IMG/VR virus record: IMGVR_UViG_3300010885_067605 | Direction: 5' to 3' (one strand) | DNA length: 64,000 nucleotides | DNA from: an uncultured virus (IMG/VR IMGVR_UViG_3300010885_067605) | Taxonomy: Duplodnaviria; Heunggongvirae; Uroviricota; Caudoviricetes | In this document: positions 5,083 through 32,863 of the stretch, in pieces | Layout: every line of letters starts with the position of its first letter | How positions within the stretch are numbered: the first letter of the stretch is position 1 | Notes under the pieces: generated by a model | Seen by the model: only the letters and a program-made list of their open reading frames with translations | Databases searched by the model: none | Told to the model about the DNA's origin: nothing | Program-made: the position numbers and the translations under genes

Positions 5083-5856
5083 TTATACATTGACCATATC
5101 TGTAGGTACGACTGCGGAGAGTTTAGCGGTGTGATTTTGCAAGTCAGTAGTTAGACGTTCCATTATAATCCCTAATATTTTATTGGTATTGATTTCGGAT
5201 TCACTCATACGGATGATCGACTGCTGCACAGGTGATTCTGGTCCGACAAAAGAGAATATATGTAGACTATATTTATCACCGTCTAACAGGCAAACATGGT
5301 ATAATGCAATATTAGGTATTTCTATTCTAATCGACTGCTTGTAAAAATTATTAAAACCACTATTATCCATATGTTCTGACCCAAATCTAATAGATATATT
5401 GGGAGTTACTGCAGCTATTAGAACTGGCAGTTGGTTAATTATGTTATTACGAATCTGTAGCAGTATGGTCTTACGTTGAGTGGCAATATCGATATTTTTC
5501 TTATACTTGATAGTACCTAACGATGCTGTATTGGCTTTGTATAACCTCAGTGTATATCGATCGGTCTGCCCATAATACAATGGTAATGGTATAGTAGTAT
5601 CACTAATATAGCCACGAGCTATTATAGCTTCTCGGTTGCTCAATTCCCACACCATATCGCATGATTCATTATGGCTAGTCACTATTAATTTAGTGGCTAA
5701 ACCACCGTTAGCCCCAACGGGCATTTTATAAGCAGACTGGGTATTACTGATGCAGTTGAGCTGCCTGAATATTTTTATATGTAAACCGTTCTTGGTCTGC
5801 TCAGTTATATCAAATTCGGCATTTAAGAAATCGAACTTAGCTACTAGTTTGGTCAT
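5083..5856 (-). CDS. hypothetical protein
   Basis: 257 aa; ATGA-coupled to the upstream 839 aa gene. Confidence 0.65.
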   Translation of the reverse strand: MTKLVAKFDFLNAEFDITEQTKNGLHIKIFRQLNCISNTQSAYKMPVGANGGLATKLIVTSHNESCDMVWELSNREAIIARGYISDTTIPLPLYYGQTDRYTLRLYKANTASLGTIKYKKNIDIATQRKTILLQIRNNIINQLPVLIAAVTPNISIRFGSEHMDNSGFNNFYKQSIRIEIPNIALYHVCLLDGDKYSLHIFSFVGPESPVQQSIIRMSESEINTNKILGIIMERLTTDLQNHTAKLSAVVPTDMVNV

Positions 5857-8372
5857 GAAATCTGTAATTGGCCATAAGTGAATTCACTAAATACTGTTAA
5901 TTGTGATCTGATATCTATCCTTCTGACTTTGGAGCCGGGCCACATCCTTAGACCGGTCTTTCCATATTGATTCTGTGGATCGACCATGATCGGATAATAA
6001 GGCGTGTTGACATTAACGGGAGTTGGTAGATTTGAGCTAAGGGCGGAGCTTGGCGGTATAAGCAATTGGTTCCACCATATCCATATTTGGTCATCTCTAA
6101 CCATGATTTCTAATCTGTTCCAATACTCACTTTGTAATCCACCTAATACAGCGCCACCATCATACACCACGAATCCATTGGGGGTGGCTGCAGGTTGTGC
6201 GCCAACGCCATTAAATGTAGATGCTTGGGAATATACTGCACTGACAGCATAACCAGGCTCTAAGCCTCTAACGTAATCATCCATATCGTCACTCGAGTCC
6301 TCTTCATAGGCTCGACTCATATCCAATTTACCTACTTTGAATTGTAATTGGACTAGATTGGTGCTTGGATTAGTAGACATCTCGATTCTAATGACTGGCG
6401 AATCATAATCTTGGTGTAACAATTCGACTATGTCGCCAGCCGCACCGGGAAATTCCGTATCTGAATCACCCGCCAACACAATGCTATCGCAATTGATCAT
6501 AGTATTGGTATCAGTTCCTGGTCCTGTCCCCGTCCCTGCTTCTGTACCTGACCCTGCCATTGTTTGATCTAATGAAGAAGGGAACATGAATTTTTTGGTA
6601 TAATTGAATATTAGGTTATTAGTAGCTCCTTGTGTACTACTATAATTTTCCGATATAACCCTGATCGCACCAGTAGGTGGCAGGTCATGGAAGTGAACCC
6701 CACATACTCGGACGAAGTTAATGCCGTTTATCGTTCCCGCTCCGATCACTCGCATATATTTTTCAGAGTGTTCATCTATCTTGGCACGTAAAACTACGTC
6801 AATCGGGATGAACTCATTCGTTGATGGTCTTCCTATGTCGACTCTAGTAATTGAATTACCAAAATTGCGTCTATTCCATAGCCACACTGGCCGCTCACTA
6901 AAATTATCTAATGTATTAGGTGAAGCTTCGACTATCAAGCCAGGCAAATCAGTATCTATTTTGGCACGGTGCTGTTTGTTCAGAGCTACCTCAGTACCTT
7001 GAGATACTATCAAATCATACCAGTATAGTGGGTCATCATATCCAGTTAGACCCCATATGTTCCTTTCAAAGTCACGTGCTGACGATACTGTTATAGAGGA
7101 CACTTTGTCTTCACTACCATCACTAGGGTTTATTTCTTCTCTAGCGTTAATGCTATCACCAAATTGCACATTGCCGGCCCATACCCACATATTGTTGGGA
7201 TTTAGTACAGGTTTAAGGCTGAAATACCTTCTATAGATAGGCTCGCCTGAGACCTCCCCTACTTTAAACTGCCACAAGTCGATTAATGTGCCTATTGGCA
7301 ATAAATCGATAGTGCTGTCTAAAGTTAGTTTTTGTGCATTATTACCAGAGACTGGGTTTTCTGGGTTGGTGTATTTCCACACATTGGTGGCTGAAAAACT
7401 GCTTCCTATGGCCTTACGCGTATCGACGTTCCACTCACGAACGATATATTGATTAGTGCTTAGTATAGTAGACGAATAATCTGTTATCACACCCATCTTC
7501 TTGGTTATCAAATGGCCCTTGTATAGGATAGAACCTAATAGACCTGGGTTGGACTCTGAATTAAGATCGAATCTGATCTGACCACCATCATTATCCTTGC
7601 CCATAAACCATACCATTTCGGGCACACCCATGGCACCCGGCGTCATAGCCCAGCCTACCTCAGTGACAGTTGAATTATTGCTGTCACGTTTGAGTATCAT
7701 TTCACTCTCGGCCGCTCCTGGGACGATAGTGTCATCATACCTTTTGAAGATAAACGAAGGGTATTGGTCTTTATTGTTGATCACCTGCGTTGGGTCATTA
7801 GGATCCACGATTGCCGATTCAGGGAACAGATATATCTTCATTTCACCGTAGACATTAGTACCTGGCAACCTACCTCCGCATACTGGCGGTCTTACTGCTA
7901 ATATATCAGTCTCATCTTGTACCCAATATATCTGAGCACATTCCTCACAAGCACAATTCAGGGGGATCGGGCTGTCTACTGTAAATCTAACTACGTTACC
8001 TATTCTCTCTATGCTTATGAATTCTGTACCCGCAGCAAGAATGATGTCTCCTTGCATCCAACCACCGTCATCCGGGAAGCCCGCTCCCTGAAAGCCCAAA
8101 ACGCCTACTCTCGTCTGTAATATAGCATCTAGTTTGCATTTATCATCTGGGTCCATTAGTCCAGGTGAATCACAAGTAGCAGATGGTATTTTATCTTCAG
8201 CTATGTGGCTCGGACCGTGGCGGCTTGGAAACAATACCTGTGATTCTTTGAAGTATAATGCCCTCTGTTGGGCGTCATATTGATAACCAGTGGTTATCCC
8301 GTTGGGGCCGCTGACTTGGATAAACTGCTCATCTGCCAAAGATGAGGAGAGTGGTATTTTGTTGATGGCCAT
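5853..8372 (-). CDS. large virion structural (tail/baseplate-type) protein
   Basis: 839 aa, AGGAG RBS, H-G-x-x-H..D-x-I-P-x-A-T..GLM..DK.KLD tail-fibre-type N-terminus, beta-rich and acidic. Confidence 0.6.
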   Translation of the reverse strand: MAINKIPLSSSLADEQFIQVSGPNGITTGYQYDAQQRALYFKESQVLFPSRHGPSHIAEDKIPSATCDSPGLMDPDDKCKLDAILQTRVGVLGFQGAGFPDDGGWMQGDIILAAGTEFISIERIGNVVRFTVDSPIPLNCACEECAQIYWVQDETDILAVRPPVCGGRLPGTNVYGEMKIYLFPESAIVDPNDPTQVINNKDQYPSFIFKRYDDTIVPGAAESEMILKRDSNNSTVTEVGWAMTPGAMGVPEMVWFMGKDNDGGQIRFDLNSESNPGLLGSILYKGHLITKKMGVITDYSSTILSTNQYIVREWNVDTRKAIGSSFSATNVWKYTNPENPVSGNNAQKLTLDSTIDLLPIGTLIDLWQFKVGEVSGEPIYRRYFSLKPVLNPNNMWVWAGNVQFGDSINAREEINPSDGSEDKVSSITVSSARDFERNIWGLTGYDDPLYWYDLIVSQGTEVALNKQHRAKIDTDLPGLIVEASPNTLDNFSERPVWLWNRRNFGNSITRVDIGRPSTNEFIPIDVVLRAKIDEHSEKYMRVIGAGTINGINFVRVCGVHFHDLPPTGAIRVISENYSSTQGATNNLIFNYTKKFMFPSSLDQTMAGSGTEAGTGTGPGTDTNTMINCDSIVLAGDSDTEFPGAAGDIVELLHQDYDSPVIRIEMSTNPSTNLVQLQFKVGKLDMSRAYEEDSSDDMDDYVRGLEPGYAVSAVYSQASTFNGVGAQPAATPNGFVVYDGGAVLGGLQSEYWNRLEIMVRDDQIWIWWNQLLIPPSSALSSNLPTPVNVNTPYYPIMVDPQNQYGKTGLRMWPGSKVRRIDIRSQLTVFSEFTYGQLQIS

Positions 8373-10562: not shown

Positions 10563-12494
10563 TTATATTAGATTTTGGTCGAAATCAACGTTATTTGATA
10601 TGTTGGCTCTAGCCCGGATTGGCACATGAATTGCACGTTGTATGTTGTTATATGATTCTATATCGTGGTTAACGAATTTAAGTGTGAATTTACGCCTGTT
10701 TCTTTCTATCCATTTGTCTGCATTGGCACCTGAACTCGAGTGAACATGATGGATGTATGCACATTTGGGTTCATATACAGTGGTTAATCCCATAATATGA
10801 CCACGGTATTGCCAATCAGAATCTTCGTAATACATCGGATAGTACATTTCGTCTAATAAACCTATAGATTGGATCGCATCACGACGCATATACATCATTG
10901 AACCAGATACGTATCCTACACTACACCTATTATTATATTCAGGAGCATTAGGATTATCACCATTTCCGATATTCCAGCCAGTACCATCATTGTATAAGCA
11001 ACTGCCTGCCTCCATCAATTCACCAGTGGGGTACAACGATTTTCCACCAGAGCAGCAGACATTACCAGCAGAATATGCAGCCTGGTTTAGATAATGTAAC
11101 CAGTTGGTAAACAATACCTCAACGTCATCATTTAACAAAACTATATCTGATGATGAATATTCAGTAAGTATACGGTTATTGGGTTTGATAAAATATTCAT
11201 TAGAAGTGGTAGCTATATATTCGGTACCTATATAACTATCGACTAATTTCTTGGTGGCTGCAGAGTCGGCATTATCTGTGACTAAAATAGTATAATTAGG
11301 ATAATTGGTATTTTTGATAGATTCGAGGCATCTGTGCAATCGATCATTATTATTGAATGTGATGATAGAAATCACAACGTGTGGTAAAGGTCTTAATATG
11401 CTACTTAAGACCGCTTTTGCATTTGATTCTGATGTAATATTATGCACTTTGTTGTATGCGTTATTGGTAAGATATTCGATCATTGTGTCAGAACATTCGT
11501 TGATCCACTTCAATGCAGACACAAACTCCATATCACTATTAGCTATCAGACAATCATGATAATTGACAAAATCGAACCCTTCTGCCCCTATTGTAGACGT
11601 GATAACTGGTATCTTATTCATTGTAGCTTCGCATATCTTTCCCTTTATACCTGCACCCCATGTTAACGGAGCCAGTAATACTCGCGCGTTTGCATAGTAT
11701 GATCTTAGATCCTGCTCATACCCAGTTACTACTACGTTCGCTCCGTTGTGTAACTTGGTGATATCCTTAGGAGGGTCTGACCCTATGATATATAAAGTGC
11801 TAGAAGAATCAGTGTCTAACACGAATTTATTAAAAATATTATAACACCTAATCGCAGCTTGTACGTTAGGAGTATGGCGGAAACCACCTACAAATATTAT
11901 GTCTTTACCTTTTTGATGTTCGGTAGCCTGTTGATGATGGATGTTTGACAGAATCCGCATGTCTTTCTTGCTAACATCACATGCTTGTTTAATATGATCT
12001 AGGTCATTATGAGTTACAGCCAAAAGCACATCGCATGATTCATAAACAGTTTTTTCTCTTGCCTTTTTATCATGGCTTCCTATGCCTCCACGTTCTTCTC
12101 TGACCCAGTGAACATCCACGGTGTCAACTATTATTTTAATTTCAGGATATAACTGTTTGATTAAAGGAATATATTTTTCTGCGGTATACCACCAGCATAA
12201 GACAGCATGCTTAAACTGGATACCAGATGATTGTAAATTAGATAATATAACGTCGTTGTTTTCACCATGATATGTTTTGACGCCTAAATTGTTCAATAAT
12301 CTCATATATTTATCGTCGACTCTGGCGTCTACAAAATAATATATATTATATCCCATCGCAGACAATATCTTGATTATCTCATATAATCTATTTCCGCCAG
12401 AATTCTGGTCATAAACGGGTGCTTCTGGTGAAAATAATAGCAGATTTTCCAAGTTGGAATCCGGTATTAGGTCGGTAGAGACGCTCATCGTCAT
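10563..12494 (-). CDS. bifunctional glycosyltransferase GT4 + GT2
   Basis: FVGGFRHTPN, GAGIKGKICEA, TSTIGAEG (GT4); LLNDD, GYVSGS, YYEDSDW (GT2). Confidence 0.9.
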   Translation of the reverse strand: MTMSVSTDLIPDSNLENLLLFSPEAPVYDQNSGGNRLYEIIKILSAMGYNIYYFVDARVDDKYMRLLNNLGVKTYHGENNDVILSNLQSSGIQFKHAVLCWWYTAEKYIPLIKQLYPEIKIIVDTVDVHWVREERGGIGSHDKKAREKTVYESCDVLLAVTHNDLDHIKQACDVSKKDMRILSNIHHQQATEHQKGKDIIFVGGFRHTPNVQAAIRCYNIFNKFVLDTDSSSTLYIIGSDPPKDITKLHNGANVVVTGYEQDLRSYYANARVLLAPLTWGAGIKGKICEATMNKIPVITSTIGAEGFDFVNYHDCLIANSDMEFVSALKWINECSDTMIEYLTNNAYNKVHNITSESNAKAVLSSILRPLPHVVISIITFNNNDRLHRCLESIKNTNYPNYTILVTDNADSAATKKLVDSYIGTEYIATTSNEYFIKPNNRILTEYSSSDIVLLNDDVEVLFTNWLHYLNQAAYSAGNVCCSGGKSLYPTGELMEAGSCLYNDGTGWNIGNGDNPNAPEYNNRCSVGYVSGSMMYMRRDAIQSIGLLDEMYYPMYYEDSDWQYRGHIMGLTTVYEPKCAYIHHVHSSSGANADKWIERNRRKFTLKFVNHDIESYNNIQRAIHVPIRARANISNNVDFDQNLI

Positions 12495-12532
12495 ATCTAC
12501 ATATGATCAAAGGTTAAAGATATATTGGTCTA

Positions 12533-13630
12533 TTAAAACAACTGTATGTGTTCTAAAACGTATCGCTTAGACTGTGGCGAATAATAATATATTGATTCAT
12601 CTATGTCCGGTTGTGTTGGTGGATCTAATTCATCTAGCCCAAGTGGATCAATGTCGGTATCATCTGCAGGTTCTTCTAGCTCATCTGCAGGTTCGGGATC
12701 AGGGCTTACTGGTATTTCTGATTGGTCATCGGTTGGTGGAGCTAAATCAGCGTTAGGGTCAGCACTTTTGAGTCGCGAATTTCGCTGTTGGTTGTTTTTA
12801 GTCAATGCGTCTAGCTGTCGTTTAGATGCTTGCCTTTGCATCTCTGTATTATCCGCACCTAAATTAGCGTCTAAAGGAGGTGTAGGGGGCTCTTGAACAG
12901 CGAACCGTTCTGCATTCTGCACACCAGGAGTCTGTATGGCCTGATCAAGCTCTTGTTGGGCTTGTTGCATAGGCTCATCTTCCTGCCGTTCTAATTGCCT
13001 CAACGTGCTTTGCCTTTTGAAATCCTGGAACGCTCTAGTAGCTGCTTGCATTTCAGGGGAATCTTCAGGCTGTTTGCTAGGATTTGCTACTAGATCGGAC
13101 ACTGCCTGGTCCAGCTTATCCTGCATAGAATCAAGATCATCAGGATATCGCGGTTGGGCGTCGATTTCTCTTTGTTTACGTGTCTTGAATATGGATGTGA
13201 GTTTCTTTTTAAGCCAGTTTTGTGCGGTCTTTACATAACCATATTTGGGGTACATGACGTCTTTGGTAACGCCTCTAATAAACCGCGAATTATAAGTACG
13301 ATAATAGTTAGTAAAAACATCTGGAACGAGTTGTCTACCTATCCAATATCGTCTTTTTAAATTATTGCTCTTCATAATAGTTGGCAGAGACCTGGCTAAT
13401 CTATCTCTCTGATCTTGGTTAATATAGTGTAAGTTGATTCCTCCTACTAAATTATTTCTAGTAGAAGGGTGCTTATAAGCACCCAATAATAGTATGTCTG
13501 GTTTAGGATCGTTATGCCAGTTATCGTAATTGAATTTCCAGCGCGGGCCCTCTCCATCTTCTAATATAGTGGTTTCGAATATATATCTAGCTTCTGATAC
13601 GTCTAATTCGCAAGCGTCAGATAACTTCAT
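12533..13630 (-). CDS. T4 gp2-like DNA end protector protein with acidic C-terminal extension
   Basis: D-P-K-P-D-ILLLG...GINLHYI...YRTY resembles the gp2 D..P.I...G.NLHY motif. Confidence 0.6.
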   Translation of the reverse strand: MKLSDACELDVSEARYIFETTILEDGEGPRWKFNYDNWHNDPKPDILLLGAYKHPSTRNNLVGGINLHYINQDQRDRLARSLPTIMKSNNLKRRYWIGRQLVPDVFTNYYRTYNSRFIRGVTKDVMYPKYGYVKTAQNWLKKKLTSIFKTRKQREIDAQPRYPDDLDSMQDKLDQAVSDLVANPSKQPEDSPEMQAATRAFQDFKRQSTLRQLERQEDEPMQQAQQELDQAIQTPGVQNAERFAVQEPPTPPLDANLGADNTEMQRQASKRQLDALTKNNQQRNSRLKSADPNADLAPPTDDQSEIPVSPDPEPADELEEPADDTDIDPLGLDELDPPTQPDIDESIYYYSPQSKRYVLEHIQLF

Positions 13631-13631
13631 A

Positions 13632-15680
13632 TCAATCTAAATGATCAAAAGGATCTACTGGTCTCATCTTAGAGATAACCGCATCGGCCATAACATGAAA
13701 ATCTATGATCGGTCTAGCCACATTTTGTCGTAACGCTTTATCGATCCTACCACATGCCCAATCACAGGCCTCGGCTATTAGCTCTCTATCTACTCGGTCA
13801 GCAGATTTTATGTCCTCGAGCAGTGGCCCAGACAACATGCTCTCTTGGATACCTAACAAGTCTCTTTCGATCTCGGCTAAGATCATCAACTTAATTTTAG
13901 CTGCGGTCAGAGCATTAGAAATAGCGTTTTTTGACACTACTTCCTCTTTACCTCCCGCCTTGGTCTTCATATTTCTAGCAGTCTGTATTCCTAACTTTTC
14001 GAATTCTAGTACCTCTCTGGTCATTTCTGCAGCTATTTCTGTGGAGCCTATCGAAGGGAGCCCTTTGCGTACCCATTCGCTTCGCCAAATAGCCCCATCT
14101 CGAGATGGTATTGGCTCAAGCTCAGGATCCTCTCCATACGAACACCAACCTCTAGCCTCACGCGGTATTTGGATGTTCTTTCTCACATTACCACGACCAG
14201 GGTAATTGCCGCCGGATTCACCCAGCGTTCTGATCGTGTATCTTAATTGAGTTACATTTAATGGGCCAGCGAATTTAACAGCACCTTTAGCTCCTAGCTC
14301 TTCTGCTTTTTTCTTCCATTTATCACCTAGAGTGCTGAAGTCAAATTGCATTGCTCGTTCTAGCATTAAACTGATTATTTCTGTATTTTCCTGCTTCTCG
14401 ATATCAGCAGCACCTTCGTCCTGTGACCCAGCTATATTGGAGGCCATACCGCTAGCATCATCACTACCAGCTGCAGGTGCGTCAAGACTCGATATGCTTA
14501 CGCTGGTTTGTCTATCAGGAGTGCTTATTGCCTGGCCAACACCGGTAGAGGCTCCTAATATCATCACATTCTCATCTTCGATCTCTTCGATCTTCTGGTT
14601 GATTTTATGGGTCACTGCATCTATTCGCTCATTATCTCCTGATTCTATCGCATCGGCGTACTCATTAGCCAGTTGGTAGAATGATGCAGAATACTTGCCT
14701 AAAGGATTGCCAGGATCTTTTTGGTGCCCAGATCTTTCTCTATACTCAGGACCAATCTGTTCAGCCGCTTGTCGAATTAGACTAGGGTCCTTGAGGGTTA
14801 GCAGACCCTTGAAGCCTACTATTCCATCTTCGCTCTTGATACCCAAAGCGGCTTGGCTTTGTTTAGTACCACCAGTGCCGTGGCCCATGCCGCTTTCGAT
14901 ATTTCTGATTGCGTAAGAGATGAACGGACTCCTACCCTCATCGAATCCTGGTTGCATCATTCTCAATAAAGGTATAAAACCGTTCTGGTACAGATCGGAT
15001 ATTAGGGTCCTGTCATTCGGGCGGCCATATTGTCTAGCTAATTGTCTGGCTTTTCTATATAGTGGGGCACCACCTTTATTGCCATACTGTGGGCTCAGTG
15101 GATGATTGTTTTGCCCTGTGAAGAGCATAGCAGGTTCACCAGCCATGGCGAATATGACTTCTTCTGGTGTCCATCTAGGTGCTTGTCCTCCTGGTTCGAA
15201 ACCAGGAGGAGGTGAACCTGGGCTTGACCATTCGGATGATACCCATCGTGGATTAGATGTTAGTGGCCCAATGGTATGATACAAAGCATCTTCTGCTTCT
15301 TGGCGGTCACCACTCCTAGGGTTTTTATAATCTTCATCTACATACCGTTGGACTATCTGCCTTTGTGGTTTTTGGGCGGGGGGTTCATCGGTTGTTGATG
15401 GTTCTTGTCTAGCGGTAGTGGCTATCGGTTGGGTAACAGCTATCGGTTGGGTAACAGCTACCGGTTGGGTATTAGAGGTTAATTGCCTGACCTTGATCTG
15501 GGCCTGCTTGAGAGCCTCTAGCTTGGCCCTGGATTGTGGGCTATCAGACCCGAACTCTCTATCTGCTTCTTTATATTCTTGATAGGCAGCATTAAATGCC
15601 CTCTTGGCTTCTGTCGCATCATCGCTTTCTAAAACAATATTATTCAAACGGCTATTGATTTTGTTTAATAATCTCGGCAT
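13632..15680 (-). CDS. highly divergent sigma70-family-like factor with large insertions
   Basis: region 2-like ARQLARQY..SDLYQNGFIPLL..FDEGRSPFISYAIRNI; region 3-like ISSLDAP; region 4-like STEIAAEM..VSKNAISNALTAAKIKL; AAGGAG RBS before ATG 15680. Confidence 0.6.
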   Translation of the reverse strand: MPRLLNKINSRLNNIVLESDDATEAKRAFNAAYQEYKEADREFGSDSPQSRAKLEALKQAQIKVRQLTSNTQPVAVTQPIAVTQPIATTARQEPSTTDEPPAQKPQRQIVQRYVDEDYKNPRSGDRQEAEDALYHTIGPLTSNPRWVSSEWSSPGSPPPGFEPGGQAPRWTPEEVIFAMAGEPAMLFTGQNNHPLSPQYGNKGGAPLYRKARQLARQYGRPNDRTLISDLYQNGFIPLLRMMQPGFDEGRSPFISYAIRNIESGMGHGTGGTKQSQAALGIKSEDGIVGFKGLLTLKDPSLIRQAAEQIGPEYRERSGHQKDPGNPLGKYSASFYQLANEYADAIESGDNERIDAVTHKINQKIEEIEDENVMILGASTGVGQAISTPDRQTSVSISSLDAPAAGSDDASGMASNIAGSQDEGAADIEKQENTEIISLMLERAMQFDFSTLGDKWKKKAEELGAKGAVKFAGPLNVTQLRYTIRTLGESGGNYPGRGNVRKNIQIPREARGWCSYGEDPELEPIPSRDGAIWRSEWVRKGLPSIGSTEIAAEMTREVLEFEKLGIQTARNMKTKAGGKEEVVSKNAISNALTAAKIKLMILAEIERDLLGIQESMLSGPLLEDIKSADRVDRELIAEACDWACGRIDKALRQNVARPIIDFHVMADAVISKMRPVDPFDHLD
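15421..15471. repeat. 18-bp tandem repeat (about 3 copies) encoding TQP(V/I)AV
   Basis: gctatcggttgggtaaca x2 plus gctaccggttgggta, in frame within the sigma-like CDS. Confidence 0.9.
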
Positions 15681-15738
15681 TGTTGTCTCCTTAATGATAC
15701 AATATTTTTGAAACACATTATATAGTAGCCAAAAATAC

Positions 15739-16407
15739 TTATTTTTTATATTTTTTTAAGATCTGCTTGATTATAGAAAGCTGGCTTTTAGACAGACCAT
15801 AATTGGTTGGTTTAAGCACCATCTTCTCGCATAAGAATAATTTACAACATAGTTCGGGGTTGGCTATGGTTATAGGAGAATAATTGTTGCGTATCATCTT
15901 CTCTAATATACCGAATTCCTCATTTTTATCAATGTCTGGATAATCAATGTCCTTGGGTCTAACGAATACCATAGTCGCTAATATCACATCTTTAAGATTT
16001 CGATTGATAGAGGTATTTCCTGAGATAAAGCTGTATTTAAGTGTGCTAGCTAGCATGCACACCTGTGATTGATTCTCCGCCATAGTTGCTATTTGGGTCT
16101 TAAGTCTTTCAGGGCTATGCCAATAATTGGCATCAAATTGAGCTAATATTTGACCATTCGCTGCCCTTATACCATAGTTTCTAGCCATACCAGCATGTAC
16201 TTGTGTGGGCGTATCTATGACGAATATATTATCAGAAGCGGTTATGTTAAGCTGAGCAGCTTTGTATTGGCTCTCAGCATTGTTAACTATGATCAATTCT
16301 TTATTGTCATAGGTCTGGGAATTGAAGCATTCGATAGTTCTTATGATGTCTGGTACTGGTGTTCTACCAGCGAGCATAATTGCCGATATCAATGGGAGTT
16401 GTGCCAT
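15739..16407 (-). CDS. GT2 glycosyltransferase (degenerate DXD)
   Basis: PLISAIM, SQTYDNKELIIVN, GMARNYG, AQFDAN, PERL. Confidence 0.8.
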   Translation of the reverse strand: MAQLPLISAIMLAGRTPVPDIIRTIECFNSQTYDNKELIIVNNAESQYKAAQLNITASDNIFVIDTPTQVHAGMARNYGIRAANGQILAQFDANYWHSPERLKTQIATMAENQSQVCMLASTLKYSFISGNTSINRNLKDVILATMVFVRPKDIDYPDIDKNEEFGILEKMIRNNYSPITIANPELCCKLFLCEKMVLKPTNYGLSKSQLSIIKQILKKYKK

Positions 16408-16522
16408 TTATTATCTCCTTAATACCAATATTAAGTACACCCAAGTTTGACATGTAGGCAAATCGTGTGAGGAACCTTCAATGCTATTGCATCAGGGTGA
16501 GATATCTCGTGGTACGAAATTT

Positions 16523-17335
16523 ATGTATTTGTACACTTTTGGTGGATTGAGTGATACGATTAGGCAGATAATGTGGGGATGCCAACTAAGTGCCCGATTC
16601 AAACGATGGTTAATTATCGATACGACACATTCGACTTTGCGTGTCGATATACAACAGTATTTCGATATAAACCAGTATAATATATACCGTGGTGATATGC
16701 GGCAATTCTATCAATACGCAAGCCCAGATAGAGTTATTCCTGATGGTGCGATCGAATATGTGATATCTAATGGGTGCCCTAAGACTAACATATTATGCCC
16801 AGAGCAAGATAGCGAGGCAGATATAATAGTATGTGGTAAAAGTGGTCTAGGTGGTACGGTTATTAACCAATTTATCAAGTTATTCCTGATGACAGATAAA
16901 ATATTGACAATACTCAGGCAGAGGTTCTACCAGTTGCCTGAAGATTATATTTCAGTGCATATCCGCAACACAGATTATCAATCGGATGTGGAATTGTTCA
17001 TAGAGCAAAATAGAGTCTTACTGACCGGTAAGAATATATTTTTAGCATCTGATAATACGGATAGTATTAATCTATTTAAAAACAAGGTTGATGCTATTAT
17101 ATATCAATTTGCTAACATACCTAATTACAACCATGACCCAAACTTGGGCATACATAAATACGTAGTTAATAACAAAAACGAATTGAACATAGATAGTATA
17201 GTTGATTTGGTGCTCCTATCTCTAGGTGAACGAGTGCTGTATTCTTGTAAAATGTCTAATTATTCTAAGAATGCCTTTGTTATGAATTCGGACGTCGAGT
17301 GTAGAGCCAAGATAATGTCCCAAATTAACGATTAG
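16523..17335 (+). CDS. NodZ/alpha-1,6-fucosyltransferase-like protein
   Basis: GGLSD, YISVHIRNTD, IFLASDN, SIVDLVLLS, SNYS motifs. Confidence 0.75.
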   Translation: MYLYTFGGLSDTIRQIMWGCQLSARFKRWLIIDTTHSTLRVDIQQYFDINQYNIYRGDMRQFYQYASPDRVIPDGAIEYVISNGCPKTNILCPEQDSEADIIVCGKSGLGGTVINQFIKLFLMTDKILTILRQRFYQLPEDYISVHIRNTDYQSDVELFIEQNRVLLTGKNIFLASDNTDSINLFKNKVDAIIYQFANIPNYNHDPNLGIHKYVVNNKNELNIDSIVDLVLLSLGERVLYSCKMSNYSKNAFVMNSDVECRAKIMSQIND

Positions 17336-17337
17336 CT

Positions 17338-17928
17338 ATGAATCCGTACGACGTAGTAAAACAATTCGAATCCAAGTTAGCCGATTTTGTAGGAAGCAAA
17401 TATGCGGTGGCTGTTGATAGCTGTACTAATGCATTGTTCTTATGCTGCTTATATTTAAAAGTGTGCGAGGTGATTATACCCAGTCGTACCTATGTGTCAG
17501 TACCAAGTAGTATCATCCACGCTGGTGGTAATGTCAGTTGGTCTGATAAACCATGGACAGGTCGATATCAACTAATGCCTTATCCTATATATGATTCGGC
17601 TTGTATGCTAGATAAGGGCATGTACATACCAGGCACTTTTCAATGCGTATCGTTTAGCGCTAATAAACCACTAAATATAGGCAAAGGAGGCATGATATTC
17701 ACCGATGATGATCAAGCCAATAAATGGTTTCGTTTGGCACGTTATGAGGGAAGAAATGAAGTGCCTATTATGGAAGACGAATTCACCATGTTAGGATGGA
17801 ATATGTATATGACACCAGAACAAGCCGCAAGGGGACTGGTATTGGCCACATATTTAAATAAGACCAACGCAGTGTGCCTAACGTATCCAGACCTTTCTCG
17901 ATTTTCAGTGTTTACACAAAGAGACTGA
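17338..17928 (+). CDS. DegT/DnrJ/EryC1/StrS sugar aminotransferase, compact form
   Basis: FESKLADFVG.KYAVAVDSCTNAL, YDSA, SFSANKPLNIGKGGM. Confidence 0.85.
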   Translation: MNPYDVVKQFESKLADFVGSKYAVAVDSCTNALFLCCLYLKVCEVIIPSRTYVSVPSSIIHAGGNVSWSDKPWTGRYQLMPYPIYDSACMLDKGMYIPGTFQCVSFSANKPLNIGKGGMIFTDDDQANKWFRLARYEGRNEVPIMEDEFTMLGWNMYMTPEQAARGLVLATYLNKTNAVCLTYPDLSRFSVFTQRD

Positions 17929-17930
17929 CC

Positions 17931-18725
17931 ATGGATTTACAATTACATCTAGAAGAACTAAATGTTAATGGTTTTACTATATTAGGCAAACTCCTAAGTG
18001 ATGAGCAAGTCATATTTTTTCGGGATAACTTAATCAAAATGAAACAGAAACATATCGATCTACATGGTGCCGATAAATTAAATAGATATGGTGAATTAGA
18101 GATGCTCAGAAATGTGGGCAGCTTCGATAATAGATACTTGGAATTAATAAGGTCTGATTGGTTGAGTGCTACTATAAATACTTTCCTTAATCAAAGAGCT
18201 ATATTGCATGGTTATCATGGTATATTGACCAATCAAGACAGTAATGGCGATAGGACATTGCCATTGAGATTTCATAGAGATGCTCCTTGGTTTAAGGACA
18301 TGCGTACCTGTATATTGGTGCTGATGCCATTAATAGACTTCACAGATGAAGTTGGACCTACAGAGGTGGTACCAGGTACTCATCTTTTCTCAAACATGCC
18401 AAGCCAAGAATATATGGAAAAGCACAAGCTCAAAATGAATATACCAGCCGGTACAGTGTTCATAATGGATGGTACATTGTGGCATAGAGCTGGACGCAAC
18501 ACATCGGGCGAAGTTCGTCCGTTATTGCAAATGAATATCACACTTGCGTTTATGAAACAGCAGATCGATGTTTGGTCATCCAGCATTTTTGACCATTGTG
18601 ACGATTTGGTTAAAGCTAGGCTCGGATATAATGTAAGAAATTATAAACATCCTGACGAGATGCTCACCGAAGATAGAAATTGGAAATCTGGTAACTATGA
18701 TATGTCCAATGCATTGATTAGATGA
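17931..18725 (+). CDS. phytanoyl-CoA dioxygenase (PhyH) family Fe/2OG enzyme
   Basis: FHRD, GPTEVVPGTH, PAGT..DGTLWHRAGRN..R. Confidence 0.9.
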   Translation: MDLQLHLEELNVNGFTILGKLLSDEQVIFFRDNLIKMKQKHIDLHGADKLNRYGELEMLRNVGSFDNRYLELIRSDWLSATINTFLNQRAILHGYHGILTNQDSNGDRTLPLRFHRDAPWFKDMRTCILVLMPLIDFTDEVGPTEVVPGTHLFSNMPSQEYMEKHKLKMNIPAGTVFIMDGTLWHRAGRNTSGEVRPLLQMNITLAFMKQQIDVWSSSIFDHCDDLVKARLGYNVRNYKHPDEMLTEDRNWKSGNYDMSNALIR

Positions 18726-19585
18726 CAGATACCGATATCATTAACCAACTGAGTGCCATATGTTCATTTACATATCAAATGAATGATGGTTGTTGTGTAT
18801 CTATATCATTCTATGATGAAGATGATCCTTTGGGAGGTACAGTTCGGAGGCATCCAGGCAAGAGAGATATCATTAAATTAGTCTCACAAATGCCTTGTTT
18901 AAAGAAGTTAAATATAAGAAAATGCAAAATTGGTACATTGCCTCAGTTTATTACTAAATCATTAGAATATGTCGATATTAGCAGTAATGATCTAACGGCA
19001 ATACCCGATTGGTTAGTCGATCAGAAAAACTTAATATTTCTAAATCTAGGAGCCAATAAGTTAACTACTATTCCTAATTTGGATAACCTACCGTTAGATA
19101 CTCTTAAGATACATAAAAACAATATTACGCGCATGCCAGTTTTACGGGACACCATTAAATCGCTGAATTTATTTTTAAACCCATTAAATTCATGGCCTGA
19201 GATAATGAAAGATTATCATCGGTTGGAGGTGTTGACTATTGGTGTGACTAAAATCGACAAGATAACATCACTATCTGCCTTTAAGCAGATGAAGTGGCTA
19301 ACACTAGTTATTAATAGCATAGACAATTTGCCAGATGATATATGTAAGCTGACTATGCTTGAGGGGCTACAATTAGCCAAAAATCGGCTATGTAGATTGC
19401 CAGAGGACATCGGCAGATTGATTAATTTACGAGCGCTGACTGTTTACGCAAATGATCTTGAATCTTTGCCTGAATCATTCTTTTGCTTAAATCTCCAAAA
19501 ATTAAACATCGCCAAAAATAGACTCGATTCTTTTCATGATAGAGTTGTAGCACGGTATGGTGGTATCGACTTGTTGAGGTTATGA
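18722..19585 (+). CDS. leucine-rich repeat protein
   Basis: about 9 LxxLxLxxNxLxxLP repeats. Confidence 0.9.
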   Translation: MTDTDIINQLSAICSFTYQMNDGCCVSISFYDEDDPLGGTVRRHPGKRDIIKLVSQMPCLKKLNIRKCKIGTLPQFITKSLEYVDISSNDLTAIPDWLVDQKNLIFLNLGANKLTTIPNLDNLPLDTLKIHKNNITRMPVLRDTIKSLNLFLNPLNSWPEIMKDYHRLEVLTIGVTKIDKITSLSAFKQMKWLTLVINSIDNLPDDICKLTMLEGLQLAKNRLCRLPEDIGRLINLRALTVYANDLESLPESFFCLNLQKLNIAKNRLDSFHDRVVARYGGIDLLRL

Positions 19586-20754
19586 TGAGCAAGATAGTGT
19601 GTGTTGCAGGTGGGTTATGGCAGAAGCCTTGGATCGAGTACTTGAAGTATAAAGGCAATTACGTAGCTGTGATAAATCCTGTAGAGACAGCAGCTACACA
19701 TCTGGCTGACTATCATATTAAGGCAGATGTCAATGACATTGACACAATAAACCAACATATTGATATAATAAAACCATCATTTATAACATCAGACCAGTCT
19801 GATGTTTCGACTATGATAGTAGCGGTATTGTCTAAAATATGGAATCTGCCAAGCAACCCAGTAGATTCAATAATGAAGCTAACTGATAAGATGCAGATGT
19901 ACGAGTTGAGCCAACAGTTGAATATACCAGCACCTTCATCTGCTGAAGTCAAGAATGTTGATGATATAATGCAGTTCGGGTCGGAACACGGTTACCCAAT
20001 TATCATAAAACCAGTAGACTCCACCATGAGCAGGGGTTTCAGAAAGATAGACACCCCAGAGTTGGTCAATGATGAGTTGTTTAATGCTACTAAACGTTTT
20101 TCTAAGTCAGGTAAGGTAATAGCTCAAGTATTTGTGCATGGTGATATGGTCACACTGGAGGGAGTGTGCTCCGGAGGTAAACACCGCACTATAGCTGTTT
20201 CCAAAAAAGATGGGTTCTTTTGTCCTGGGATTAATAGAGGGGTAAGATATCCATATGATACTCCATTGGTGAAGCAGATTATAGAAGCTAATGACTTGTA
20301 TATCCACAGCTCTGGCATGATTTTTGGTTTGACTCATAGTGAGTATGTTTATAATCATGATGGGTACCATTTAATAGAGATAGGCGGGCGTGGTGGTGGT
20401 GCTGGGATAACGAATAAGATAGTGCCTTGGGTATCTGGAGTGGATGTTTATGATGTGTTGTATCGTTCTTTAATGGGAGAACAAGTGGATGTGTACGAGC
20501 TTAATGTGATGAAAAGACCAGCCTTATTGAGATATTATACTGCTGATCAAGTCTACCATTGTACTGAAGCCATAGCTGATATGATAAGAAGAATACCAGG
20601 TGTTGCGGATTTCAATTATAATTTCGCGGGTAAACAGTACGTTTATGATCAACAAGATGTTCGCCATAGTATGGCTATCTTGTTGAGTAATACTCAACAG
20701 CAGTTAGAAATGTTGGAAAGTCAGATTCACCATCTGGTTAATCCCAATGATTGA
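19582..20754 (+). CDS. ATP-grasp ligase
   Basis: TDKMQM, YPIIIKPVDSTMSRG, THSEY, LIEIGGRGGG. Confidence 0.9.
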   Translation: MMSKIVCVAGGLWQKPWIEYLKYKGNYVAVINPVETAATHLADYHIKADVNDIDTINQHIDIIKPSFITSDQSDVSTMIVAVLSKIWNLPSNPVDSIMKLTDKMQMYELSQQLNIPAPSSAEVKNVDDIMQFGSEHGYPIIIKPVDSTMSRGFRKIDTPELVNDELFNATKRFSKSGKVIAQVFVHGDMVTLEGVCSGGKHRTIAVSKKDGFFCPGINRGVRYPYDTPLVKQIIEANDLYIHSSGMIFGLTHSEYVYNHDGYHLIEIGGRGGGAGITNKIVPWVSGVDVYDVLYRSLMGEQVDVYELNVMKRPALLRYYTADQVYHCTEAIADMIRRIPGVADFNYNFAGKQYVYDQQDVRHSMAILLSNTQQQLEMLESQIHHLVNPND

Positions 20755-21328
20755 TGATTATGCCCGCATTTGTGATAGATCGCACTAATTGATCATGTGA
20801 TGCATCACTTATATTCATGTGTTTAGTGTGGAATTCTACATATAATTTGTTGATGAGGGAGATGGTACCATCATTAATTAGCTTGTAGAGAACAGCGTAT
20901 TCTGAGCCTTCAATATCCAGTTTGACGGTCAAGTGGTGCACAGCAGGGTCGATATTTGCCCGTAACCACCTACTGAAATCGATACAATTTATGTCCAGCG
21001 GTTTTAAATGAAAATCGTTGCCCATATATTCTTGGCCTGTATCTGTTGCAGACACTGCGTGTCCATCCTTTGTTCGGCATAACTTATGTCTAAATAGTGA
21101 ACTCCCAACTTGATTGGTATCCTTGCTGATATAGAATGGTAATATACAATCTTCCGTCCAGATAGCTTGTGGCATTAACACATATTGAGAGCCGTGGTAA
21201 CTATCGTGGAACAAAGGATTAGGTTCAAAAACATATATCAGATCAAATGGCGTTCCAAATAGATGGATATATCTATCGACGCTGTTCTTTGAGTTGGCTC
21301 CACCGTCTACTAACACTTGTATTGTCAT
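20738..21328 (-). CDS. FkbM family methyltransferase
   Basis: VDGGAN, FEPNP, VKLDIEGSEY, VEFH. Confidence 0.9.
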   Translation of the reverse strand: MTIQVLVDGGANSKNSVDRYIHLFGTPFDLIYVFEPNPLFHDSYHGSQYVLMPQAIWTEDCILPFYISKDTNQVGSSLFRHKLCRTKDGHAVSATDTGQEYMGNDFHLKPLDINCIDFSRWLRANIDPAVHHLTVKLDIEGSEYAVLYKLINDGTISLINKLYVEFHTKHMNISDASHDQLVRSITNAGIIINHWD

Positions 21329-21734
21329 GATAGTGCTACACCATAGTCGGAAAGGATGTAATCACATAGTGGCCAGCATGATAGCCGAACGTTTAGGATG
21401 CAATACTTACGCACTAGAGGATGGCAACATTGATTTGGGAAAGCAAGAACTGATAATGTTTGTCGTGTCTAATGTAGGTGATGAAGAATTACCGCAACAG
21501 ACAGAAAATTTTTTGTGTAATTTAGGTTTACGTAACAAGGAATATATGGTGTGTGAACTTGGTAATTATTTAGGTCTAGAAAACTACTGCGGTTGTAAAC
21601 AAGTATTAATCAAATTACTAAATAAATTGGGGTGGCATAAGGTAGCTGATACATCTATAGATTCAATGCCATCGCTCGATTTGATAGCACTCAATACGTG
21701 GATTGAATCATGCATACATTATATCGCTAGGTAA
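21327..21734 (+). CDS. flavodoxin-like protein
   Basis: HHSRKGCNHIVASMIA, SNVGDEELP, ELGNY. Confidence 0.7.
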   Translation: MIVLHHSRKGCNHIVASMIAERLGCNTYALEDGNIDLGKQELIMFVVSNVGDEELPQQTENFLCNLGLRNKEYMVCELGNYLGLENYCGCKQVLIKLLNKLGWHKVADTSIDSMPSLDLIALNTWIESCIHYIAR

Positions 21735-22559
21735 GTTCGCGGTGACTCGCTTTATTAAATCACAATATTCATTATTAGTACAATTAATTGCCCAATTAGT
21801 TATATGTTTTCTATTAGAAAAATAATGCAAAAATATGATTTTGTCTAGACCTATAGGATCTAGGATATCATACCAATTGAATATGTTAGGTAATTGGTTG
21901 GTAGGGATTTGTAAATCATACAATGCCTTAGCGACTGCTATCTGCCCAGCAAAATAATACAGCTCGGGGTATTTGTTAATAATGTGGCTAGTGATAACTA
22001 ACATTCTCTCACCTATAGCTCTGAGATATCTACTTGGCACAACGAGCATGCCCATGTTAAAGTAACTTAATGGCATTCCATCCTCATATCTATTTTCATA
22101 ATGAACCATGCCATTCCGTTTTTTATATTGGTTCACGCTATATAAACCATCGATACCTAGGCTGCCCCAATCAGAGGCTGATAGAGGGTTAGTATATGCG
22201 AGCACACCGTGAAATATACTAAGATCTATTTGGTAGATGGGTGATATATCACGACACGCTATTATATCAGCATCGATTAGTACACAGGTTTCACTCTTGG
22301 GTTCTATGTACCACCTATGCGGTATTGGTATAGACCAATAATATGGGCTATACCATATATCCGCGTTTCTGTTAATGTATTCATTATTAACATGACCAGG
22401 CGACAAGTTAGGTGCCACTATCGGCGACTGCATTGAGCCATTTACAACGACTGAAAAAAAGGAGTGTCGATGTGAAGAATATTTTTTAACACTTCTGATT
22501 AACAACTCTGTTTGGAATAACATATCTGGAGAATCACTTATTAGCAATATGTAATGCAT
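21708..22559 (-). CDS. GT-A fold (GT8-like) glycosyltransferase
   Basis: LIDADII, YFNMG, AGQIA, FLHY. Confidence 0.7.
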   Translation of the reverse strand: MHYILLISDSPDMLFQTELLIRSVKKYSSHRHSFFSVVVNGSMQSPIVAPNLSPGHVNNEYINRNADIWYSPYYWSIPIPHRWYIEPKSETCVLIDADIIACRDISPIYQIDLSIFHGVLAYTNPLSASDWGSLGIDGLYSVNQYKKRNGMVHYENRYEDGMPLSYFNMGMLVVPSRYLRAIGERMLVITSHIINKYPELYYFAGQIAVAKALYDLQIPTNQLPNIFNWYDILDPIGLDKIIFLHYFSNRKHITNWAINCTNNEYCDLIKRVTANLPSDIMYA

Positions 22560-31234: not shown

Positions 31235-31295
31235 TTTAATGCCATTATACCAGCATTCTCTAAATGCTGGCTAGTATATAATGTAGGCAAATAAT

Positions 31296-32863
31296 ATGTC
31301 ATTGTCTAAGTCAATCAAGGACGAAATATATCGATTGTATACGGCTGGTATGTCTATTATAGCTATAAGCGACTTGGTCAAGATAAGTCAACCTACAATA
31401 TCCAAAATACTAAAATCACGCGGTGTAGTAATTAGAAAATGTAATTATCAGGCTAAACTATTAGATACGATAGAGATAAATAAGCTTTATGATGAGGGGT
31501 TGTCCACTTATAGTCTTGCTAAGATGTTTAACGTTAGTAGCGAGACTATAAGAAAGTATATCACTAGGGTCAGGCCACCGTCTTCCGGCCACAATAGTGA
31601 TACTAAGCAGAAGATATCTATAACATCTTTAGCCAATTGGCGACAGGCTGAATATCGCACCAAAGTGGCCGACGGTAAAACAGCAGAATGTCGTCAGAGT
31701 CTTTCAACTTCTGCTAGGAAAAATTACCAGAAGTCACTTGGAGAGTGGATATCTAATCATGATAATCGAAGGGTGATAGCAGAGGCCACCAAAGAACTGT
31801 GGGTTGATCCTGAGTATAGGCGTAAGCAGGAGGTATACTTTCAGGAAAGAGGTGCTAGGCTTACTGCTGCATCGAATATAGCTTTAACCGACCCCGAAAA
31901 AAGGGCTACGTGGATAGAAAAGATAAAACGCAATAACGCGGATAGACTTAATGGTGGTTGGGTTAGCACGACACAGAAGCAATTCTATTACTTGATGGAT
32001 GAGGCTGATATAGTATACTACCCTGAGGGCGATTTAACCAGGATATCTCCTTTTTATGTAGTCGACTGTATCATACCTGTTCAGCAGAATATGAGTAAGC
32101 CATTAATAGTAGAAATAAATGGCGAATATTGGCATTCCTTATCCCATGTTAAGCTAAAAGATAGGCAAAAGGCGACATATATAGAGAACAATACTGAATA
32201 CGATCTCGTAATAATTGAAGAATTAGAAATGCATAATTTTCCAATGGTACAAGGCAAACTCGTCGAATATGGACTAACTCTGAGCGATATCGAGTGCAGT
32301 GTTTCAGATATGATCATCGAGCAGATAACAGAAGAACAAGCCAAGGAATTTTATAGTATATTTCATTATTCTGCTACTGTTAGGAAGGGTGCTATTACTT
32401 ACGGTGCCTTTTATAACCAGAGATTGGTAGGTGTGATCAGCTATACGTTCCCACTACGTAGAACAACTGCCACTAGACTTGGCTACCAATTAAAGGAGGT
32501 GATGGAAATATCTCGTATGGCACGCAGGACTAACTTAACATGTAAAAACTTCTTAAGTTGGTTTATATCCAAGACAATGAAAAAACTACCTACATCGATA
32601 AAATGTATAGTTAGTTTTAGTGACAGCACATATGGTCATACTGGCGGAGTATATAAGGCGGCCAATTTCAAGAACGATGGCGAGATATCTCCAGATTACA
32701 CTTATCTATCGACTACCGGGCAATACCACAAAAAACCATATGGGACAGGGCCAAAAGAATGAAAATGACGGAAAATGACTATGTGGCTAAGCATGGCCTA
32801 ATCAAGACATATGGTGGTCCAAAGACTAGATGGATTTTTCAAGGTAAGGTTAGCAACACATAG
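31296..32863 (+). pseudogene. HTH + DUF559/Vsr-like endonuclease + Mom-like DNA acetyltransferase fusion, frameshifted near the C-terminus
   Basis: YVVDC..LIVEINGEYWH..DRQK nuclease; FHY, EISRM, SWFISK, VSFSD.TYGHTGGVYKAANF Mom motifs; -1 frame after the A6 run at 32730-32735 continues to TAG 32863. Confidence 0.75.

Follow-up and report, generated by a model that had tools for sequence, protein, structure and literature searches.

The window analysed here, a stretch of 64,000 nucleotides from an uncultured virus of the Caudoviricetes (IMG/VR record IMGVR_UViG_3300010885_067605), carries on its minus strand a gene, P0001, whose 682-residue product is very probably a homologue, highly divergent and oversized, of the sigma70 family. 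The window is phage DNA, with nucleotide-metabolism genes, many glycosyltransferases and methyltransferases, a Mom-like gene and a few virion proteins. A first-pass annotation, made from the sequence of the window, had delimited the P0001 reading frame and listed a series of sigma-like motifs along it. The frame was recovered exactly, on the same strand and with the same length, with one base between its TGA and the ATG (13630) of the next reading frame, and every one of the motifs is present in the order listed. Because the sequence AAGGAG lies 6 nt before the ATG at 15680, a GTG further upstream, at 15716, is an unlikely start; plus-strand reading frames within the gene are shadows.

A word-indexed search returned 120 homologues of P0001 with 35–76% identity and E values down to 0, all of them metagenomic, either unnamed or labeled "hypothetical protein," and located on contigs of up to 438 kb. 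At 560–870 residues, members of this family are much larger than the usual sigma70 factors, which have about 200–340. The query and 62 of the 120 homologues were combined in an alignment of 63 members (A1), in which residues 117–650 of P0001 form the conserved core. Each of five related huge-phage records contains a single copy of the gene. P0001 is left unannotated by curated models: PHROGs holds no family for it, and sequence searches of the PDB with P0001 alone or with the family profile gave no relevant match.

Homology to sigma70 factors

The decisive evidence for the predicted membership of P0001 in the sigma70 family is a chain of distant relatives. Run with HMMER against 1.84 billion representatives, the A1 profile retrieved only 97 proteins, which indicates that ordinary sigma factors lie beyond its direct reach. 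The list includes proteins of roughly 450–700 residues with E values from 1e-36 to 2e-4, and 24 such distant relatives were scanned against Pfam. One of them, P0176 (E 3.3e-21 with the A1 profile), passes the Sigma70_r2 model with 32.8 bits against a cut-off of 24, and five more match it weakly. Two others, P0187 and P0200, pass Sigma70_r4 (PF04545; 24.2 and 28.3 bits, cut-off 24.1), and P0168 matches the r4_2 model weakly. With the general sigma70 model TIGR02937 (cut-off 42.9 bits), P0200 scores 48.9 bits across both domains, P0187 39.0 and P0176 30.8. P0001 is linked to these proteins by pairwise comparison as well. Its blastp match to P0187 has an E value of 2e-9 over the region 2 part, where P0187 has its own Sigma70_r2 match, and residues 525–565 match residues 465–512 of P0187 in the region 4.2 part (E 0.006); the match to P0168 reaches E 2e-22.

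Profile–profile comparison points in the same direction. The reference alignment (A2) consisted of eight sigma factors, namely E. coli RpoS, RpoD, RpoH, FliA and RpoE and three canonical sigma factors of related phages. In hhalign, A1 places residues 208–273 of P0001 onto residues 98–161 of RpoS with an E value of 6.9e-4, and a 20-sequence superfamily alignment (A3) aligns with A2 over regions 2.2–2.3 with a probability of 85.6, an E value of 5.6e-6 and a score of 53.3. In the controls, the reversed sigma alignment gave E 0.43, and none of 20 column shuffles scored above 16. Within the family itself, 11 of the 63 members match Sigma70_r2 weakly (best E 5.8e-4), and the Pfam models of region 4 (PF04545 and PF08281) match neither P0001 nor any of the 63 members at E <= 0.1. 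The sigma70 reading of the first-pass annotation is thereby borne out by sequence, with region 2, a region 3.2-like motif and putative regions 4.1 and 4.2 following one another in order (Table 1).

The architecture around these regions is peculiar to the family. The closest known factors are the two-domain and ECF-like sigma70 factors of groups 3 and 4, among them the sigma factors of "group 2" jumbo phages that lack an RNA polymerase; as with these, a segment aligning with regions 2.2–2.3 comes first, and putative regions 4.1 and 4.2 come after it. The P0001 family departs from those factors in its conserved leader, in a block rich in Pro and Trp that precedes region 2, in a spacing of about 200 residues from region 2 to region 4, in a highly conserved insert between regions 4.1 and 4.2 and, in P0001, in another insert of 28 residues within the region 4.2 helix-turn-helix. 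By eye only, residues 129–181 in the block before region 2 resemble region 1.2, and hhalign over residues 117–204 yielded no confident alignment; the likeness of SISSLDAP, in the linker, to sigma region 3.2 was likewise drawn by eye only. Ten residues of the insert between regions 4.1 and 4.2 are invariant in A1 (Y493, G495, R500, R507, W512, D518, E520, W532, S534 and W536). The split helix-turn-helix consists of STEIAAEM (residues 546–553), the 28-residue insert (554–581) and the recognition-helix-like VSKNAISNALTAAKIKL (582–598). The N-terminal arm that had been described as Pro/Gln-rich is indeed long; its composition is corrected to Ala, Gln, Thr, Glu and Pro, and it is missing in most of the family. 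At residues ~70–90 (15410–15470, minus strand) this arm contains a short tandem repeat, with VTQPIA twice and then TQPIA.

Table 1. Coordinates of P0001, its parts and adjacent elements in the window
Feature	Position	Strand	Remarks
Family 2 glycosyltransferase gene, first of the conserved block	15739..16407	minus	PF00535, E 8.2e-15; also upstream in L001-L004 and L006
GGCTACTATATAATG, possible promoter -10 element	15716..15730	minus	36 nt upstream of the P0001 ATG
Shine-Dalgarno sequence AAGGAG	15692-15687	minus	6 nt 5' of the P0001 ATG
Sigma-like factor gene P0001	13632..15680	minus	682 aa; ATG at 15680, stop 13634-13632
N-terminal leader, residues 1-18	15627..15680	minus	helix-like; ends V-L-E (VLE at 16-18)
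Variable arm, residues 19-118	15327..15626	minus	rich in Ala/Gln/Thr/Glu/Pro; insertion in closest relatives only (A1)
Conserved Pro/Trp/Gly-rich block, residues 117-204	15069..15332	minus	invariant or near-invariant columns (A1, A3)
Sigma region 2-like domain (2.1-2.3), residues 205-271	14868..15068	minus	Pfam, hhalign, blastp
Region 3.2-like linker motif SISSLDAPAAGSDD, residues 395-408	14457..14498	minus	conserved S-x-D-A-P columns (A1)
Region 4.1-like helix LNVTQLRYTIRTLG, residues 474-487	14220..14261	minus	R480 and R484 invariant (A1)
Family-specific insert between 4.1 and 4.2, residues 492-545	14046..14207	minus	most conserved part of P0001
Split region 4.2-like helix-turn-helix	13887..14045	minus	aligns with Pfam-verified Sigma70_r4 of P0187 and P0200 (A3)
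Two conserved [I/L]-x-E sites after region 4	13812..13856	minus	LGIQES (609-614; IQE 611-613) and PLLED (619-623; LLE 620-622)
C-terminal tail, residues 624-682	13635..13811	minus	conserved D628 and D631, acidic helix (A1, A3)
gp2-like DNA end protector gene P0002	12533..13630	minus	365 aa; phrog_429; hhalign to T4 gp2

Termini, gene neighborhood and phage lineage

Both ends of P0001 carry sites of the type cut by prohead proteases. In nearly all homologues the protein begins with a leader, some 17 residues long, that follows the pattern M..I..R[IL]..[RK][LF]..[IL]xE. An [LIVMF]-x-E motif with its Glu at residues 14–24 is found in 114 of 121 homologues, as compared with 18% of random windows from the same proteins; the seven sequences that lack it are mostly truncated or mis-started. 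The P3 position of the site is Ile or Leu in 105 of the 114, and the site recurs in 13 of 14 distant relatives. After region 4 the family shows the patterns L-G-x-x-E-S and P-L-L-E, with E622 near-invariant across the superfamily (A1, A3). A regular expression for this C-terminal pattern matched 104 of 121 homologues, but it also catches a later IAEACD motif.

These sites resemble those of head proteins in phage T4. According to the portions of PMC9026906 available, T4 gp21 cuts after the Glu of L/I-X-E; T4 virion proteins lose N-terminal propeptides of 7–65 residues, which in the internal proteins serve as capsid targeting sequences that lead these proteins into the head; and Alt is shortened at its N- and C-termini. 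P0001 is like this T4 head cargo (IPI–III and Alt) in having a short leader that ends in I/L-x-E and a second site near the C-terminus, and its lineage likewise has genes for a gp21-type protease and a gp23-type capsid protein. The same source gives host RNA polymerase as the target of Alt, a target presumed here for the sigma-like protein too. It differs from the T4 cargo in that P0001 has no sequence similarity to it and in that the leader is not common to other proteins of a complete relative (G001). The "cleavable-looking" termini of the first-pass annotation thus correspond to conserved [I/L]-x-E sites in a lineage with a gp21-type prohead protease.

The gene immediately downstream, P0002, had been called gp2-like, and this assignment held. 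The DNA end protector family phrog_429 is matched at the same place in five of seven family members, with weak E values of 0.0035–0.014, and the P0002 family alignment (A6) aligns with T4 gp2 in hhalign with a probability of 76.6 and an E value of 2.1e-5 over 57 columns, a moderate match that covers the core motif only. A tblastn search with the gp2-like protein of 50,697 deposited phage records found nothing. The T4 record annotates gp2 as protecting the ends of injected DNA. The proposed coupling of the two genes is conserved as well: the gp2-like gene is adjacent to or overlaps the sigma-like gene in six of seven family loci (the window, L001-L004 and L006). T4 offers a positional parallel, since there the gene upstream, gene 4, overlaps the start of gene 2; the sigma-like gene sits in that place here and is translationally coupled, whereas T4 gp4 is, according to the T4 record, a short head closure protein of 150 residues, unlike the 682-residue sigma-like protein.

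Comparison of six IMG/VR loci with a family member, on contigs of 146–408 kb, showed the same gene order in five: glycosyltransferase, sigma-like protein, gp2-like protein, a 594-residue protein and an 839-residue protein. The window differs from its relatives by two extra genes after the gp2-like gene, a fused GT1+GT2 glycosyltransferase of 643 residues and an open reading frame of 129 residues. IMG/VR gave no context for the distant relatives. One metagenome locus was found for a distant relative; its sigma-like protein is ~23% identical to P0001, and a gp2-like reading frame, 48% identical to P0002, lies one gene downstream. In L027, the distant high-GC relative, a 213-residue reading frame (6847–7488, plus strand) lies between the sigma-like and gp2-like genes and has no PHROG match at E <= 0.1.

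In uncultivated huge phages of the T4 type that lack an RNA polymerase of their own, P0001 is a predicted core gene present in one copy. The published passages on the Moraphage lineage did not establish that it is the same as this one. All five related records encode a gp23-type capsid protein (259–267 bits) and a gp21-type prohead protease (Peptidase_S77), the latter above the cut-off in four; the window itself does not contain the protease gene. Domains of the RNA polymerase beta and beta' subunits were found in none of the five records by a search that detected them in 14 of 14 control genomes. Further canonical sigma genes are present in two of the five records, G001 and G002 (64.6, 55.4 and 31.6 bits), and the other three contain no additional Sigma70_r2 match at E <= 1. 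[I/L]-x-E sites also occur in the N-terminal parts of the relatives' capsid protein and protease. In the head module of the relatives (L017-L026), the capsid protein and the prohead protease start with MLP[TS]R in several cases; in G001 the protease domain lies within a 640-residue reading frame, as against about 240–255 residues otherwise.

Proposed role and alternatives

A huge phage that has no RNA polymerase of its own depends on taking over that of the host. Based on the features described above, a simple model would suggest that P0001 is a packaged and processed sigma-like factor that directs host RNA polymerase, a reading that is favored tentatively and held at just short of even confidence. 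In this model, P0001 would bind the host core RNA polymerase through region 2; its leader would load it into the prohead, where the gp21-type protease would trim it at both ends, as in T4 Alt; and the protein would then enter the cell with the DNA and direct the first phage transcription. The parts of the model differ in strength. That P0001 acts on host RNA polymerase is probable, the likeliest mechanism being that of a sigma-like specificity subunit for the core enzyme. Its packaging and processing, argued by analogy, can be entertained as a fair hypothesis that somewhat more speaks against than for; the case for packaging is circumstantial and makes it plausible, drawing on termini that look like cut sites, on the prohead protease found in the lineage, on the conserved link with the gp2-like gene and on the extra canonical sigma factors of some relatives, and the head-protease-type cut sites would make delivery with the DNA possible. 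Additional canonical sigma genes in some relatives would leave room for a special early role. Of the overall interpretation given in the first-pass annotation, the sigma derivative, the gp2-like gene, the coupling and the conserved terminal sites stood, and virion delivery stays conjectural.

Several observations weigh against this model, beginning with the sigma assignment itself. On P0001, Sigma70_r2 (PF04542) matches residues 208–261 with an E value of 0.051 and 13.8 bits, below the cut-off of 24. An NCBIfam scan gave no match at E <= 0.1, TIGR02937 included, a failure that concerns P0001 and not the putative superfamily. While region 2 was recovered in the profile check, P0001's own region 4 was weak, the C-terminal part aligning with the sigma region 4.2 helix-turn-helix at E 0.007–0.017; a second hhalign alignment, of LNVTQLRYTIRTLG onto region 4.1, is not significant (E 0.14), and the helix-turn-helix of P0001 is interrupted by its insert. 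In the hhalign output, the column that follows the conserved aromatic residue of region 2.3 lacks the Trp pair present in E. coli RpoS, and promoter melting may therefore differ. As for the termini, [I/L]-x-E is a short motif that random windows contain at the frequency given above. A leader hidden Markov model applied to the 5718 candidate starts of G001 detected the sigma-like gene only (E 0.018); the next matches had E values of 0.4–9, those in the head module 0.9–4, none of them significant, and a regular expression for the core of the leader motif gave no clear enrichment in that genome. The tblastn search of the deposited phage records found no homologue of P0001 and no cultured relative, and queries with the L006 homologue, P0176 and P0168 found nothing either. 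Finally, in the complete relative G004 the gp2-like gene is located ~9.6 kb away on the opposite strand; adjacent in most loci, near in the distant relative and separate in G004, the two genes appear to share a linkage that is old and not obligatory.

The strongest alternative would be an ordinary intracellular sigma factor, synthesized in the course of infection and absent from the virion, that steers the host polymerase to phage promoters of a single temporal class; regulators or co-activators would then make contact with its leader, its inserts and its acidic C-terminal helix. The sigma homology (the Pfam passes of distant relatives, TIGR02937 and the A3–A2 alignment) is the same under this explanation, and jumbo phages lacking an RNA polymerase commonly encode sigma factors, as stated in the accessible parts of PMC7824862 and PMC13282480. 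P0001 could be the main sigma factor in the three related records without another Sigma70_r2 match, and the restriction of the leader to the sigma-like protein in G001 also speaks for this reading. An ordinary factor, however, has to coexist with the additional canonical sigma genes of G001 and G002, and leaves unexplained both the near-universal [I/L]-x-E sites at the two ends and the conserved coupling to a gene whose T4 equivalent is annotated as a protector of injected DNA ends. On balance it is doubtful, with real weight nonetheless.

A sigma-derived protein that does not initiate transcription is unlikely. It might act as a decoy, filling the sigma site on the host polymerase and so shutting off host genes, or it might be a partner of the gp2-like protein at the DNA end or portal that holds DNA by its sigma fold. 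Such a function would accord with the 28 residues that split the region 4.2 helix-turn-helix, with regions 2.3–2.4, which beyond the conserved aromatic residue no longer follow the consensus of sigma factors, with the location of the most conserved block in a family-specific insert that is no sigma region, and with the tight coupling to the gp2-like gene. Distant relatives, by contrast, have an intact region 4.2 that passes Pfam, and regions 2.2–2.3, 4.1 and 4.2 are kept in order throughout the superfamily, which suggests selection for full sigma function. Least probable by far is a helical virion or ejection protein unrelated to sigma factors and similar to them by chance: P0001 has no curated or PDB sequence match, and its nearest Atlas neighbors are tape-measure-like models at TM 0.18–0.26, but these rows, which fall below Atlas's own bar, were rejected because the Atlas model has a pTM of 0.25. 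Chance is also opposed by the profile–profile controls and by the stepwise links from P0001 to proteins above the cut-offs of Sigma70_r2, Sigma70_r4 and TIGR02937.

If P0001 is indeed a packaged sigma-like factor, its closest precedent would be found in Salmonella phage Arash, whose virion proteome, in the part of PMC10585845 available, lists the sigma factor Gp10 (24 unique peptides and 467 spectra in Table 2) alongside the beta and beta' subunits of the phage itself; in the authors' caution, Gp10 in particles may be carry-over. In another study, a phage sigma factor detected by mass spectrometry was judged to be co-isolated (PMC5618024). Gp10 is a small canonical sigma factor of 234 residues that would serve a co-packaged phage polymerase, in contrast to the 682-residue P0001, and an Arash-type polymerase was not found in the window or its relatives. 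In having no beta or beta' family found, the lineage of P0001 is like the group 2 jumbo phages, described in the accessible text of PMC7824862 as lacking their own RNA polymerase. A literature search of main texts found no packaged sigma factor for a phage dependent on host polymerase. The remark of the first-pass annotation that it knew of no described packaged sigma factor calls for qualification, given Arash Gp10 as presented in that part of PMC10585845.

The novelty here, if P0001 is packaged, would be a sigma factor in the virion of a phage without its own RNA polymerase. The fullest form of this proposal, in which P0001 would be the first encapsidated sigma factor of an RNA-polymerase-less phage, matured at both ends, co-injected with the DNA-end protector and redirecting the host core enzyme to phage promoters before phage expression, is attractive yet rather doubtful. 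With virion delivery, host transcription would be taken over by a new route, replacement of the promoter-recognition subunit, and the strategy would parallel the injected RNA polymerases of N4 and phiKZ as well as T4 Alt. More generally, a single-copy sigma relative of three times the usual size that is tied to a DNA-end protector marks a candidate new branch of the sigma70 family, and its conserved inserts, if the proposed role is true, would illustrate how much elaboration a sigma scaffold allows.

Promoter searches and surrounding genes

The possible -10 element upstream of P0001 conforms to the pattern GGCTA[C/G]TATATAATG, of which a second, near-identical copy lies at 31269–31283 on the plus strand before the Mom-like gene, with one base different at the degenerate position. 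The two copies may represent a shared promoter -10 element. They are the only two, a number not above chance for the degenerate pattern; the pattern is not conserved in relatives, and the sequences upstream of the homologues have no promoter motif in common. The T4 late promoter word, TATAAATA, is not enriched (8 found, 10.6 expected). Scans for sigma-70-type promoters and terminators were uninformative, and a single-sequence search of the relatives with T4 gp55 found nothing, a result informative neither way. The gene behind the second copy (31296–32762, plus strand) encodes a 488-residue protein with several N-terminal helix-turn-helix motifs and a Mom-family DNA-modification domain (PF25680, E 1e-23).

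The locus is embedded in a sugar and modification block (10563–22559) that comprises the fused GT1+GT2 protein, GT2 and GT8 glycosyltransferases, a DegT-type aminotransferase, a PhyH dioxygenase, an ATP-grasp protein, an FkbM methyltransferase and a leucine-rich-repeat protein. The 839-residue protein at the end of the conserved gene order (5853–8372, minus strand) is 64–67% identical in three relatives and 50% in L006, and is thus more conserved than the sigma-like protein. It has no match in Pfam, PHROG, the PDB or, by tblastn, the same 50,697 phage records; weak Atlas leads (0.84–0.86) point toward tail-fibre-like families.

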